Source of the DNA: Magnetococcales bacterium
GTDB lineage: Bacteria; Pseudomonadota; Magnetococcia; Magnetococcales; JADFYX01
Assembly (NCBI GenBank): GCA_015231305.1
Contig: JADGBW010000006.1
Span: 1-63,460, forward strand
Length of the DNA: 63,460 nucleotides
Direction of reading: 5' to 3'
In this document: positions 52,842 to 61,120 of the stretch, piece by piece
Layout: the number at the start of each line of letters is the position of its first letter
How positions within the stretch are numbered: the stretch's first letter is position 1
Translations under genes and position numbers: made by a program
The notes under the pieces: model-generated
The model's database searches: none
What the model saw: the letters and a program-made list of their open reading frames with translations, nothing else
Told to the model about the DNA's origin: nothing

Positions 52842-53084
52842 TATTCTCTATTTCCAAGTAAAAGGAAGCAATAAGACAGTTAAGCCATAAGTTCCCATAA
52901 AAATTACAATTAACCAATACACTTCAGATTACACTTTCTAACCTAAAATTGGCAAGAGTTTCAATCTTTTTTTGTGACGTTTACTACCCTGCAAGGTATT
53001 TATAGCAATACTCCGCCAATACTAATTATAACTCAAACAGTTAATAAACAGTATTTTCACAACAATTTGATTTAGATTAATGAT

Positions 53085-53247
53085 CCTAAAAACGGCAGTT
53101 GGAAGTGCGTGCATAGTGTAATCTATAGATTTATCTGGTGTATAAGGGGAAATCGCGGTTACCTTATTGGTGATAAGACTTTCCCCTGATATGCTAGGTG
53201 AATCAAAAGGTTGCGCTAGGTGCGTGCTTACAACTGCCGTTTCTAGG
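53085..53247. mobile_element. 163-bp MITE-like palindromic element, copy 1
   Basis: Ends CCTAAAAACGGCAGTTG / CAACTGCCGTTTCTAGG; flanked by direct ATGAT (53080-84, 53248-52); second copy at 60957. Confidence 0.85.
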
Positions 53248-53267
53248 ATGATAGTTTTCAGATTTAA

Positions 53268-56200
53268 TTACAAGCTATTAACTGTCCTTCTACCACTAAA
53301 ATTAGCAGCACCTGTTCCAAACAGCCCTATAGCTCCTGATAATAGCTCTTCACTGGGGGTAACCTTATAAGCCTCCCCTAGTTTTAGCTGTACTTTACTA
53401 TCTGGTATAGTCAAATTGACAACAACCCGGCAAGCCGTGCCACTGTTTTTTGATATTAGCTCTGCTAAACTATCCATACCTTTGTTTGCTAACTGTTCAT
53501 GCTTAATCTGCAAGCGCAACTCCCGACAAAAGCCCCCCCTAAAATCTGCTAGACTAACAACATCAGTAGCCATCATTTTTGGCTCTTCTTCTCCTGGTTC
53601 TATGGTTCCTGTTACTACTAGCAACCCCTCTTCGTCTAGAAGGTCACGGCATGCGGTAAATACTTCTGAAAAAGCAATAACTTCAATCTGTCCAGCCATA
53701 TCCTCAAGAGAGAAAAAGGCCATTAGTTCACCTTTTTTTGTCCTATGAATTTTTTTGTCAACCACCACCCCTGCTATGCGTACATCATCCTGTGGGTTAG
53801 CTCTAGGGCCAAATTTTTTCTTAATATGGTCCGAGTCTTTAATGCCATAATCTGCAAGCTCAGGCAGATACTTACGCATGGGATGACCCGACATATAAAA
53901 ACCTAGGGCATCATTTTCAAAAGATAGCTTTACATCATCGCTAAGAGGTTTTACTGCTGGTAGTTGTGGTTCACTCTCAGGAGTATCACCAAAAAGATCC
54001 AGGCAACCATGGTCGGACTCCTCCTGCCGTCTGCTTCCTTGGCTTAAGGCTGAAGGCAAGGCTTTTAATAGGGCTGCTCTATTTTCAGAAAGGCAATCGC
54101 ACCCACCAGATTTAATTAGGTTTTCCATCATACGGCGGTTTAAACCAGCTGTTGCAGCACGGTGACAAAGATCATACAAACTTTTAAAAGGCCCAGTACC
54201 GTCATCTCTAGCTGCTAACATGGCATCTACAGCACCCTCGCCAACATTTTTAACAGCTGCCAAACCATATTGTACCGCACCATCTTTAACACCAAAGTCT
54301 CTGCCAGAAACATTAACATCTGGTGGCAAAACCTTAAGCCCCATCTCTCGGCATTCACGGACAAAAAGTGTTACTTTATCAGTGTTTAGCTTATCACATG
54401 TTAAAGTTGCAGCCATAAACTCTACGGGGTAATGGGTTTTTAACCATGCGGTTTGATAGGAGATCAAAGCATAAGCAGCAGAGTGAGATTTATTAAAACC
54501 GTAACCTGCAAATTTTTCCATTAAATCAAAAATATATTCCGCTTTTTTGGCATCAATACTGTTTTCGGCAGAACCTTTCATAAAAATAGCTCGCTGAGAG
54601 GCCATCTCTGAAGCTTTCTTTTTACCCATAGCACGTCGGAGCAGATCAGCACCCCCTAGAGAATACCTTGCTAAAACCTGAGCAATTTTCATCACCTGCT
54701 CTTGATAGAGGATAACTCCAAAGGTCTCTTTTAATATTGGCTCCAGCTCTGGCAGAGGATATTCCACCGCAACCCGTTTATGTTTACGGTTAATAAAATC
54801 GTCAACCATACCTGACCCCAAAGGACCGGGACGGTAGAGAGCAACAAGAGCAACAATCTCTTCAAATGTATCTGGAGCCAGTTTTTTTAATATCTCCCGC
54901 ATACCAGAAGATTCTAACTGAAACACACCTTTAGATTTACCATCTTTTAAAAGCTGAAAGGTCTCTTTATCTTCTAAGTCAATAGTATCAATATCAACTG
55001 GCTCTTCACCTCGTGCGATACGAGGACCATTAACAAGGCGTAAAGATTCATGGATGACTGTTAAGGTTTTTAGGCCCAAAAAGTCAAACTTTACCAAACC
55101 AGCACGTTCAACATCTATCATGTTAAACTGGGTTACAGGCATGGTAGATCGCGGGTCTAAATAGAGAGGGACCATGTCAGTTAATGGTCCATTAGCCATT
55201 ACCACACCCGCAGCGTGGGTTCCGCAAGAACGTGGAAGACCCTCCAGGGTTAAAGCTAAATCAATTAACTCGGCGACCTCCCTATCTTCTTGTATTAATT
55301 TATTAAGCCGTTCTTCTTCATCTATAGCTTTTTTCAGTGTTATACCAATAACATTGGGAACAAGTTTGGCAATACCATCTACCTGCCCATAGGGTAATTG
55401 TAAAACCCTGCCCACATCGCGTATAACAATTTTAGACTGCAAAGTACCAAAGGTAATAATCTGCGCTACTCTATCATCGCCATATTTATGCTGCACATAT
55501 TCAATAACGTTTTGCCGTTTATCCATACAAAAATCTACGTCAAAGTCAGGCATAGATACACGTTCTGGGTTAAGAAACCTCTCAAACAATAATTGATAAC
55601 GAATAGGGTCTAAATCGGTAATATCCAAACTCCAAGCCACCAAAGAACCAGCACCAGAACCACGCCCTGGACCCACAGGTATATTCTCTTTTTTAGCCCA
55701 ACGTATAAAGTCTGATACAATTAGGAAATAGCCAGGAAAACCCATTTGCAAGATAACTTCTAGCTCAAACTTAAGCCTATCATTATATTGTTTTGTTATT
55801 TCGGCATGCTCTTTTTCATCAAACCGTGGCAGAACGTGATTTGACAGACGAGATTTAAGACCATCGTGTGATTGAAGCCGTAACCAAGAAGCAAGATCTT
55901 CCCCAGCGGGAAGCTGAAAGTTGGGCAGTACAGTTTTACCTAAATCTAACTGTAAGTTACACCGCTTAGCTATTTGAATTGTATTTTCAATGGCTTCTGG
56001 TATATCAGAAAACGTATCGACCATCTCATCAGCAGTAGCAAAATGAAAACGATCGTTAAAACTCTCCCGGTTGCTATCATCAGCTAATGACTGCCCTAAA
56101 CCGATACAGCGAAGGGTATCAAAAGCCCGTAAATCCTTTTTTTCAAAAAAATGGACATTGTTACTAGCAACAACAGGAATATCCAACTCTATTGCAAGCT

Positions 56201-56795
56201 TGGCTGTGTTGTGGATCAACTCCTCTTCTTCTACTAACCCATGGCGTTGTAACTCAAGATAAAAACCCTGCTCTGAAGTAGTTTTATCTTTATATAAACT
56301 GGCAAGTTCTATAGCTTTTTCACGAGCCAAATCAACCTCACCCAAAGCTAAAAGGCGACCAACCCCACCTTTTACACCAGCCGAAAGAGCAATCAACCCC
56401 TCGTTATGTTTACTTAGAAGATCTAAATCAACCCGTGGTTTACCATGGCTACCATCAAGATGCCCAATAGATATTAATTCCAGCAGATTTAGCCACCCCT
56501 GATTATTACGACACAGCAGCACCAACTCTTCTCTAATCTCTTTATCTTCACGGACGGTAGTATCAGTATGGTCTGCAACAACATATACCTGCGCCCCTAA
56601 AATCGGCTTAATACCAGCCTTCATACAACCAGAGAAAAACTGCACAGCAGCAAACAGGTTACCCTGATCAGTCAAAGCCAACGCAGGCATGTTCTCCTTT
56701 GCAGCCCTTGCAATAAGGTCCTCAACCCTAATAGTAGAGTTAAGCAAAGAGTAGCCAGAGTGAACATGCAAGTGAATAAAAGGAGCGTGTGTCAT
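53268..56795 (-). CDS. dnaE: DNA polymerase III alpha subunit
   Basis: HLHVHS, GPGRGSGAGS, PDFDVDF, FAGYGFNKSH; no intein visible. Confidence 0.98.
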   Translation of the reverse strand: MTHAPFIHLHVHSGYSLLNSTIRVEDLIARAAKENMPALALTDQGNLFAAVQFFSGCMKAGIKPILGAQVYVVADHTDTTVREDKEIREELVLLCRNNQGWLNLLELISIGHLDGSHGKPRVDLDLLSKHNEGLIALSAGVKGGVGRLLALGEVDLAREKAIELASLYKDKTTSEQGFYLELQRHGLVEEEELIHNTAKLAIELDIPVVASNNVHFFEKKDLRAFDTLRCIGLGQSLADDSNRESFNDRFHFATADEMVDTFSDIPEAIENTIQIAKRCNLQLDLGKTVLPNFQLPAGEDLASWLRLQSHDGLKSRLSNHVLPRFDEKEHAEITKQYNDRLKFELEVILQMGFPGYFLIVSDFIRWAKKENIPVGPGRGSGAGSLVAWSLDITDLDPIRYQLLFERFLNPERVSMPDFDVDFCMDKRQNVIEYVQHKYGDDRVAQIITFGTLQSKIVIRDVGRVLQLPYGQVDGIAKLVPNVIGITLKKAIDEEERLNKLIQEDREVAELIDLALTLEGLPRSCGTHAAGVVMANGPLTDMVPLYLDPRSTMPVTQFNMIDVERAGLVKFDFLGLKTLTVIHESLRLVNGPRIARGEEPVDIDTIDLEDKETFQLLKDGKSKGVFQLESSGMREILKKLAPDTFEEIVALVALYRPGPLGSGMVDDFINRKHKRVAVEYPLPELEPILKETFGVILYQEQVMKIAQVLARYSLGGADLLRRAMGKKKASEMASQRAIFMKGSAENSIDAKKAEYIFDLMEKFAGYGFNKSHSAAYALISYQTAWLKTHYPVEFMAATLTCDKLNTDKVTLFVRECREMGLKVLPPDVNVSGRDFGVKDGAVQYGLAAVKNVGEGAVDAMLAARDDGTGPFKSLYDLCHRAATAGLNRRMMENLIKSGGCDCLSENRAALLKALPSALSQGSRRQEESDHGCLDLFGDTPESEPQLPAVKPLSDDVKLSFENDALGFYMSGHPMRKYLPELADYGIKDSDHIKKKFGPRANPQDDVRIAGVVVDKKIHRTKKGELMAFFSLEDMAGQIEVIAFSEVFTACRDLLDEEGLLVVTGTIEPGEEEPKMMATDVVSLADFRGGFCRELRLQIKHEQLANKGMDSLAELISKNSGTACRVVVNLTIPDSKVQLKLGEAYKVTPSEELLSGAIGLFGTGAANFSGRRTVNSL

Positions 56796-59830: not shown

Positions 59831-60946
59831 TCACATAACGCTAAGCATTCGATCCAACGCCTTTTTGGCAGAAATAGCCACAGCTGAAGGAACCGTAATT
59901 GGGTTAACAACATGCCCTGCTACCAAGTTTTCTAGGGTCCAACACAAATGCTGGGTATCAATACGAAACATAGTTGAACACATGCAAATTGTAGGGCAAA
60001 GAAAATGTATCTCTTTATCTGGCATCTCATGCTTTAGGCGGTTTACCAAATTTAGCTCTGTACCTATGGCCCATTTACTACCAGAAGGAGCATTACGCAC
60101 TGCTGATTGAATCTGTTCGGTGGAACCTAAATGGTCAGCCTTCATGCAAACTTCATAGCTGGATTCTGGGTGTACAGTTATTTGAATACCAGGAATTTGC
60201 TCTCTGAATTGGTCGATATGGGCAGGTAGAAACATTTGATGTACAGAACAAAAGCCGTCCCATAAAATAACCTTAGCATCTTTTATCTGCTGAGCAGTTA
60301 AACCACCATTAGGCTCGCTTGGCTTCCAGATAACCATCTCATCAAGAGCTATCCCCATAGCAGCAGCACTGTTGCGCCCTAAATGTTGGTCTGGAAAAAA
60401 AAGTACTTTTTCCCTCTTCTCAAAAGCCCAAGCTAATACTTTTTGTGCATTTGAAGAGGTGCAAACAGTGCCCCCATGATCACCACAAAAACCTTTTAAA
60501 TCAGCCATAGAGTTGACATAAGTAACAGGAGTAACCACGCTTTCGACATCTATAACCTTACCAATTGCCTGCCATGCTATCTCAACTGAAGGGAGGTCTG
60601 CCATATCAGCCATAGAACAACCAGCTGCCATATCTGGCAAAACCGCTATTTGTTCTGGGGTGGAGAGTATATCTGCCACCTCAGCCATAAAATGGACACC
60701 ACAAAAGACAATATAACGGGCATCAGGTCTTTTGGATGCCAAACGAGATAGCTTTAGAGAGTCACCAGAATAATCTGCAAACTTATACACTTCTTCACGT
60801 TGATAGTGATGCCCCAAGATAACACATGTGTCACCAAGGGTAGTTTTTGCAGCTTGTATTCGACTTTCTAATTCAGCATCAGAAAGTTCATATAGTGGTT
60901 CTAACAATACCGGGCTGGGATCAGACATGATAATATTTGAACTCAT
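59831..60946 (-). CDS. nadA: quinolinate synthase
   Basis: GHHYQ, FCGVHFMAE, AGCSMAD, CTSSNA and C.VH. Confidence 0.96.
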   Translation of the reverse strand: MSSNIIMSDPSPVLLEPLYELSDAELESRIQAAKTTLGDTCVILGHHYQREEVYKFADYSGDSLKLSRLASKRPDARYIVFCGVHFMAEVADILSTPEQIAVLPDMAAGCSMADMADLPSVEIAWQAIGKVIDVESVVTPVTYVNSMADLKGFCGDHGGTVCTSSNAQKVLAWAFEKREKVLFFPDQHLGRNSAAAMGIALDEMVIWKPSEPNGGLTAQQIKDAKVILWDGFCSVHQMFLPAHIDQFREQIPGIQITVHPESSYEVCMKADHLGSTEQIQSAVRNAPSGSKWAIGTELNLVNRLKHEMPDKEIHFLCPTICMCSTMFRIDTQHLCWTLENLVAGHVVNPITVPSAVAISAKKALDRMLSVM

Positions 60947-60956
60947 TAAATATTAA

Positions 60957-61120
60957 CCTAGAAACTGCAGTTTAAAGAGCGTGCATAGTGTAATCTATTG
61001 ATTTTTCTGGTGTATCAGTAGAATATCGTGGTCACCTTGTTGGTGACAAGACTTTCTTCTGATATGCTAGGTGAATCAATAGGTTGCGCTAGGCGCGCGT
61101 TTACAACTGCTGTTTCCAGG
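60957..61120. mobile_element. 164-bp MITE-like palindromic element, copy 2
   Basis: About 86% identical to copy 1 by manual alignment, same orientation; flanks ATTAA/TTTAA (4/5 match). Confidence 0.8.

Follow-up and report, generated by a model that had tools for sequence, protein, structure and literature searches.

What kind of sequence folds into a single 163-bp rod between dnaE and accA, and in which molecule is that fold kept? This question is raised by one locus of the window, a stretch of 63,460 nucleotides from an uncultured, magnetotactic-type Magnetococcales bacterium. An earlier note had proposed a mobile, non-autonomous element with IS1380-like ends, undescribed so far, whose rod is selected in a single-stranded form. 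The features of the window referred to below are the following:

53085..53247, + strand: MITE copy 1, 163 bp, subfamily A; + is the well-folding strand, and this copy was the query of the family search
53080..53084, no strand: left target-site duplication, ATGAT, 5 bp, read directly; fits W-T-N-A-W
53248..53252, no strand: right target-site duplication, ATGAT, 5 bp, read directly
53085..53101, + strand: left terminal inverted repeat, 17 nt, where the transposase presumably binds; identified as a shared 17-mer
53231..53247, - strand: right terminal inverted repeat, 17 nt, identified by pattern match; its partner in the fold is the left repeat
53158..53174, + strand: apical 6-bp stem with a 5-nt loop, taken from the fold; sequence nearly invariant across genera
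53201..53213, + strand: IHF-like site, WATCAANNNNTTR, a perfect match to the IHF consensus
60957..61120, + strand: second copy of the 163-bp family, 164 bp long with 86% identity to copy 1, identified by the family search

A dispersed family of 163-bp elements

Copy 1 is flanked by dnaE (53268-56795, - strand) and accA. Its + strand pairs with itself from end to end without gaps, and a recount of the first 68 positions returned exactly the numbers previously obtained by hand: 50 Watson-Crick pairs, 12 G.T pairs and 6 mismatches, one of them A.C and five of other types. Beyond position 68, an internal loop is followed by the apical stem-loop, which occupies alignment columns 74-89 and is invariant or nearly so. 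The 12 G.T pairs against a single A.C corresponded to a two-sided binomial p of 0.0034. Folding both strands as RNA, a check suggested beforehand, gave -93.0 kcal/mol for the + strand (z -12.7, equalled by 0/200 shuffles) vs -50.6 kcal/mol for the - strand (z -6.8); DNA parameters gave -37.3 and -23.6, respectively. The perfect ATGAT duplication described for this copy was read on both sides of it. At gathering scores, Rfam returned 0 matches across the whole window. When the segment 53064-53269 was searched in E-value mode, the best match was the plant MIR821 precursor with 50.8 bits vs a gathering score of 249; we rejected this identity as a generic long-hairpin match far below threshold. 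A promoter scan found no site within copy 1, and the single site in its flank was within chance.

Copy 2 is placed between the divergent genes nadA (59831-60946, - strand) and queG. The 23 aligned positions at which it differs from copy 1 agree with the earlier estimate of about 23. Its flanks, ATTAA and TTTAA, carry one mismatch and the duplication is therefore imperfect.

Blastn searches of the window's genome (3.96 Mb in 238 contigs, 82.6% complete, 38.5% G+C) identified about 99 family loci, many of them at contig ends; 46 are full length with flanks. These 46 copies were combined with 60 copies from related genomes (G001-G004, G011 and G017), the 60 being the best-scoring places listed, to give a set of 106 copies. 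Direct repeats of 5 bp were perfect in 65/106 copies and had one mismatch in a further 22/106, vs 0/105 in an offset control. The duplications comprised 13 different 5-mers. The second base was T and the fourth A in each of the 65 perfect repeats; the target is therefore W-T-N-A-W. Empty sites were also recovered. The dnaE-accA spacer measures 286 bp in the window's genome and is empty in two relatives, with lengths of 119 bp (G004) and 87 bp (G001). In a contig of a named MAG (L043), the element is bounded by TTAAA on either side, and the matching site in contig C38 of the window's genome is a single TTAGA. The number of loci, the duplications and the filled and empty sites bore out the proposal of a mobile non-autonomous element. 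The G003 dnaE-accA spacer (L127, G003:C29, ~1130-1330) contains a different, degenerate stretch of ~170 bp which is weakly family-like and could be an old or independent insertion.

Most full copies (43/46) lie outside crude ORFs of at least 100 aa. By hand count, 12 of the 46 are between convergent ORFs and 4 between divergent ones (p 0.08). Many family copies are degenerate or truncated. The window's genome also contains a 112-bp family with identical ends, and mini-elements of 48 bp made of two subfamily B ends only (C194:5441-5488, C175:22472-22519, C151:1536-1583 and C74:10358-10405). The deletion junction is common to the mini-elements, most of which are flanked by 5-bp duplications (e.g. 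those in C194 and C175). Since these ends-only forms carry duplications, about 24 bp per end would suffice to move, which suggests that the two ends alone can be mobilised.

The family was found in 9/41 genomes searched: all 5 of the genus, including the window's, G017 and G011 in the same order, and G033 and G022 as weak matches. The exact end pattern was present in 8/56 genomes of the order. A 22-nt pattern retrieved 14 stretches from the named genome collection, 12 in one Magnetococcales MAG, 1 in another and 1 in a contig labelled Nitrospinota. The 17-nt end alone matched at least 117 metagenome stretches. The Nitrospinota-labelled contig (L040, JADGAW010000244.1) includes a copy of the element, and its genes show 78-89% identity to those of contig C104 of the window's genome; it is therefore probably a mis-binned contig of the window's genus.

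The element is 163 bp long and gene-less and has 17-nt inverted ends; its copies are bounded by variable duplications of fixed length and are dispersed in the genome, and autonomous elements with the same ends exist. Judged by these sequence features, it is a MITE family, a non-autonomous DDE transposon with ends of IS1380 type.

Terminal repeats and candidate transposases

IS1380-family elements have ends starting with CC and make a 4-5 bp duplication. The 17-mer of the left end of copy 1 (with W at two places) bounds MITEs of 48 bp to 290 bp as well as full ISs. One of these, at metagenome locus L195, is a complete element of 1634 bp with an ATGAA duplication and the 17-nt ends of this MITE. 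Its 519-aa ORF scored 57.3 bits against PF13701 (cut-off 34.7) and 133.6 bits against NF033539 (cut-off 180). Another, at locus L188 (123-1799), is an IS1380-type element of 1677 bp with the MITE's ends and a transposase 56% identical to that of L195. The L188 flanks, TTCAT and ATGAA, are reverse complements of each other and form no direct repeat, as after recombination between two copies, and its two ends match the ends of two different MITE subfamilies. Plasmid CP087967.1 of a cultured Polaromonas provided a further example: 1630 bp long, it has the MITE's ends, is flanked by a TTAAA duplication and encodes a transposase with 50% identity to that of L195. Compared by tblastn with annotated ISEcp1-family transposases, the L195 transposase showed 25.8% identity over about half its length (E 3e-12).

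The subfamily B end of the MITE is CCTAGATTCGGCAG, beginning CCTAGATTC. The ISEcp1 IRL is given as CCTAGATTCTACGT, with 5-bp direct repeats, in PMC6061673. Since three full ISs with the 17-nt ends (L195, L188 and CP087967.1) encode IS1380-type transposases, the IS1380 origin of the ends, proposed previously from their resemblance to ISEcp1, stands, and sequence comparison supports ends of IS1380 type from a clade distantly related to ISEcp1.

This assignment comes with two reservations. Locus L154 (2178-3967) contains an element of 1790 bp with an ATTAT duplication and the same 13-17 nt ends, but its 522-aa ORF matched the IS4_4 model (253.5 bits, cut-off 250) and DDE_5 and is of IS4/IS701 type; no BLASTP similarity was detected between the L154 and L195 proteins. 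The partner is therefore not limited to one transposase family. Within the order, homologues of the L154-type transposase were rejected as partners, as they are found without these ends. The start of a 234-bp class of metagenomic MITEs resembles the L154 left end.

The second reservation concerns the carriers themselves. The IS1380 model had 0 matches in the window's genome, which is 82.6% complete. All end pairs lying 0.2-6 kb apart in this genome were neighbouring MITEs, and ten solo ends had no adjoining transposase. No gene of the L195 type was found in G001-G004 or G017. The IS1380 model did match genes in 19/41 relatives. The IS1380-type ISs inspected among them have ends CCCGGATATTTCATGAA and a 4-bp CTAG or CTAA duplication, and these genes were rejected as partners since both ends and duplication differ from those of the 163-bp element. 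The search for a transposase with the same termini thus succeeded in metagenomes and on the Polaromonas plasmid, but not in the window's assembly or in G001-G004 and G017.

The ends of the relatives' ISs (G004:C205 and G013:C25) are those of a second MITE of the window's genome, 178 bp long with ends CCCGGATATTTCATGAA and a 4-bp CTAG/CTAA duplication, of which 17 copies were found. Examples lie outside the window:

C42:13423-13600, C227:16005-16181 and C77:3732-3909: copies of the 178-bp MITE

Several copies of the 178-bp MITE sit within the 163-bp element, at a CTAG in its end or body.

Folding of one strand, covariation and orientation

Copies were oriented by sequence similarity and not by folding. 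In this orientation, the + strand was the more stable one in 104/106 copies. In an alignment of 84 sequences comprising 5700 cells, 92.2% of cells pair on the + strand vs 75.6% in the mirror structure of the - strand; 4223 cells are Watson-Crick, 1035 G.T, 87 A.C and 355 other. G.T was the majority state at 14 pairs and A.C at 0. Changes on both sides were observed at 37/68 pairs, a number reached by 0/500 shuffles, and slid controls paired at 35-45%. Tandem G.T stacks were of the 5'-TG/3'-GT type in 178/216 cells.

Because the copies are related, cell counts overstate the number of events, and changes were therefore counted by parsimony on a tree of the 106 copies; the tree is shallow and the sequences short, so these counts are rough. 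Internal branches carried 47 changes from Watson-Crick to G.T vs 17 from Watson-Crick to A.C (p 2e-4), together with 48 changes from G.T to Watson-Crick and 21 double changes between Watson-Crick pairs. With 22 A>G and 25 C>T changes among the G.T gains, deamination alone does not account for the excess. Terminal branches showed 138 changes to G.T vs 101 to A.C (p 0.02). Six cluster consensuses each contained 9-14 G.T and 0 A.C. Private changes inside tight clusters were 23 G.T vs 10 A.C (36 vs 14 with a looser threshold), whereas strict singletons, counted in the window's genome only, were 7 G.T vs 12 A.C and showed no bias. The G.T bias is not merely inherited: it is continually renewed in lineages that leave descendants, and the signal after the last insertion is mixed. 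The internal-branch excess and the covariation lend support to the proposed selection on a single-stranded form, with one strict count of private changes standing apart.

The same behaviour was found in other MITEs. Five metagenomic families with these ends, 137-290 bp long, had the homologous strand more stable in 20/21, 11/12, 7/7, 4/4 and 4/4 copies; nine further metagenomic elements were singletons or pairs and were excluded from the family counts. In the 178-bp MITE, the same strand folded better in 17/17 copies, with means of -96 vs -67 kcal/mol.

An IHF-like site at element position 117, in the 3' arm, was present in 72/106 copies vs 14/2120 shuffles with any site, and the mirror site on the other arm was kept in only 19/106 copies. 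The IHF consensus used was WATCAANNNNTTR. Such a site may account for conservation of its region at the level of the double strand.

The well-folding strand is the + strand of the window in both window copies, and dnaE and nadA are on the - strand. The previous observation that the best fold is antisense to these genes is correct for both copies, but it is not a rule: among 25 copies between co-directional ORFs (hand count), 14 had the foldable strand in the same direction and 11 in the opposite one, indicating no preference. Orientation was also compared with the GC skew of the flanks, calculated with elements masked on MAG contigs, an indirect proxy for replication direction. The foldable strand was the C-rich strand in 41/67 copies of the window's genome and in 41/67 copies of five relatives, or 82/134 when pooled (p 0.012, about 61:39). 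Four of the five relatives agreed in direction; G017 was reversed (7 vs 4). In the 178-bp family, the foldable strand was on the C-rich strand in 13/17 copies. The sign of the skew matched the majority gene strand in 42/57 regions, and in the relatives the foldable strand was opposite to the majority gene strand in 35/57 copies. Adjacent copies sharing a contig agreed in orientation in 10/13 pairs. The orientation effect is modest.

Proposed mechanism, alternatives and relation to known systems

We think it probable that the element is a gene-less, IS1380-derived MITE moved in trans, whose rod is kept by a single-stranded state of fixed polarity. Movement by a transposase provided in trans, which recognises the ~17-bp ends and inserts the element by a 5-bp staggered cut at W-T-N-A-W sites, is shown by sequence through the ends, the duplications, the copy number, the filled and empty sites and the full ISs with identical ends. 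The internal rod is unneeded for end recognition, because the 48-bp ends-only derivatives also carry duplications. Lineages that continue to produce copies nevertheless keep the rod foldable on one fixed strand, following the GC-GU-AU path typical of structured single strands. From this we infer a single-stranded state of fixed polarity, either as a stage of the element's passage or as the form in which it is judged. That such a phase matters for spread is likely, given the renewed G.T bias, the six other families behaving alike and the placement on the C-rich strand. Several results count against this explanation: no partner transposase was found in the carrier assemblies searched, the L154 element shares the ends but encodes another type of transposase, the L195 transposase scores below the NF033539 cut-off, the orientation bias is modest and reversed in G017, and the signal after insertion is mixed (singletons 7 vs 12, clusters 23 vs 10, terminal branches 138 vs 101).

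Covariation alone cannot separate RNA from ssDNA. We lean slightly towards ssDNA exposed at replication or transposition, since MITE families that are unrelated to each other, have these or other IS1380-type ends and come from different hosts show the same one-strand bias, and since the foldable strand is under-represented on the G-rich strand, which has the sequence of the lagging-strand template. A more detailed version, which we put forward tentatively, is that transposition of IS1380-type and neighbouring IS4/IS701-type elements has a strand-specific ssDNA step; selection would favour short derivatives that fold back into a rod on one strand, and these would be retained more often where the lagging-strand template is the other strand. 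The RNA counterpart, which had been suggested previously as a mobile structured RNA, would be a MITE that spreads in the same manner and whose rod is kept as a + strand transcript, which might, for example, be cut by RNase III, stabilise transcript ends or regulate the partner transposase. Several features fit such a transcript. Interchange among GC, GU and AU is balanced, G.T having been gained 47 times and lost 48 times on internal branches; 18% of paired cells are G.T, a pair that is costly in DNA; the strands differ in RNA folding energy (-93 vs -50.6); and tandem G.T stacks are mostly 5'-TG/3'-GT (178/216 cells), a stable motif in RNA. The placement of the foldable strand opposite to the majority gene strand in relatives (35/57) could mean that strong hairpins in mRNA are avoided, and bcr1, the closest described analogue, is transcribed with compensatory changes at the RNA level according to Delihas 2011 (PMC3184786). 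However, copy 1 has no promoter-like site inside it, the foldable strand shows no preference relative to co-directional flanking ORFs (14 vs 11), no Rfam family matches at gathering score, and many copies are degenerate or truncated. The bias is moreover common to unrelated MITE families in many hosts, which suggests a cause in how the elements move and not in a single RNA function. We regard a functional transcript as rather unlikely, yet as a serious rival in view of the G.T frequency, the tandem stacks and the bcr1 analogue.

It is harder still to attribute the pattern to no single-strand selection at all, with the G.T excess arising from a founder accident or from strand-biased mutation, and the covariation from template-switch correction of quasi-palindromes. 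Template switching can change both arms together without selection, the relatedness of the copies inflates cell counts and the strict singletons (7 vs 12) are unbiased. These points are outweighed by the 47 vs 17 independent changes on internal branches, which involve both A>G (22) and C>T (25), by six separately derived cluster consensuses with 0 A.C, and by the bias shared by seven families with different internal sequences. In addition, copies sit in both genome orientations, so that a chromosome-level mutation bias should cancel. Very improbable, finally, is a REP/REPIN-like or IS200/IS605-type palindrome moved as ssDNA by a tyrosine (HUH) transposase. This idea would agree with a hairpin confined to one strand and with the orientation bias seen against GC skew, but REP/REPIN and IS200/IS605 systems are not known to make a target duplication or to have long terminal inverted repeats, whereas variable 5-bp duplications and long terminal inverted repeats are both present here, and full-length relatives encode DDE transposases. 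A derivation from such palindromes was disfavoured on account of the duplications and the inverted repeats.

Taken by itself, the element is a further MITE family from an uncultured lineage; it is valuable as a natural experiment. More than 100 copies in six genomes, together with six further families, indicate that short IS1380-type derivatives evolve like structured single strands of fixed polarity, with a modest bias in their orientation to GC skew. To our knowledge, how IS1380-family elements transpose has not been worked out. Since a cultured carrier of a full element exists in the form of the Polaromonas plasmid, the requirement for fold and polarity is directly testable. In practical terms, the family breaks assemblies, many copies lying at contig ends, and can mislead binning, as in the contig labelled Nitrospinota.

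In the literature searched, we found nothing on MITEs in Magnetococcales, no occurrence of the strings of the element's termini, and no report of hairpin MITEs that combine a systematic G.T strand bias with an orientation bias. The claim of an undescribed element holds for the literature and the Rfam release searched; its kind is that of a MITE, and no new class is involved. The new part is the documented and renewed one-strand bias across families, with the accompanying orientation bias.

Among known systems, ERIC, Correia (nemis) and other enterobacterial or neisserial hairpin MITEs are similar by description: they lie between genes, measure ~100-170 bp and form long palindromes, imperfect and bounded by terminal inverted repeats. 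An IHF site is found in Correia elements, and an IHF-like match is present in 72/106 copies of this element. Elements of the ERIC and Correia type are known to make a TA duplication or none, whereas the duplication here is 5 bp. The bcr1 element of the Bacillus cereus group (~155 bp, MITE-like) is closer: in the descriptions of it given by Delihas 2011 (PMC3184786), it has a similar size, 5-bp direct repeats, a non-conserved genomic distribution and compensatory changes that preserve a fold. The MITE described here differs from bcr1 in being a single rod, in having a nameable transposase family and in being known from sequence alone.

The comparison with ISEcp1 and the IS1380 family concerns the ends and the enzyme. 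The ends of the MITE begin with CCTAGA, and subfamily B shares its first 9 nt with the ISEcp1 IRL given in PMC6061673. Both elements make 5-bp AT-rich duplications, and transposases of full ISs with the MITE's ends have matches to PF13701 and to the transposase of ISEcp1. Unlike these ISs, the MITE is 163 bp long and without a transposase gene, and the related transposases are only ~26% identical to that of ISEcp1 over half their length and score below the NCBIfam IS1380 cut-off. If the proposed single-strand step is true, it would concern the transposase group that includes ISEcp1, a mobiliser of resistance genes.
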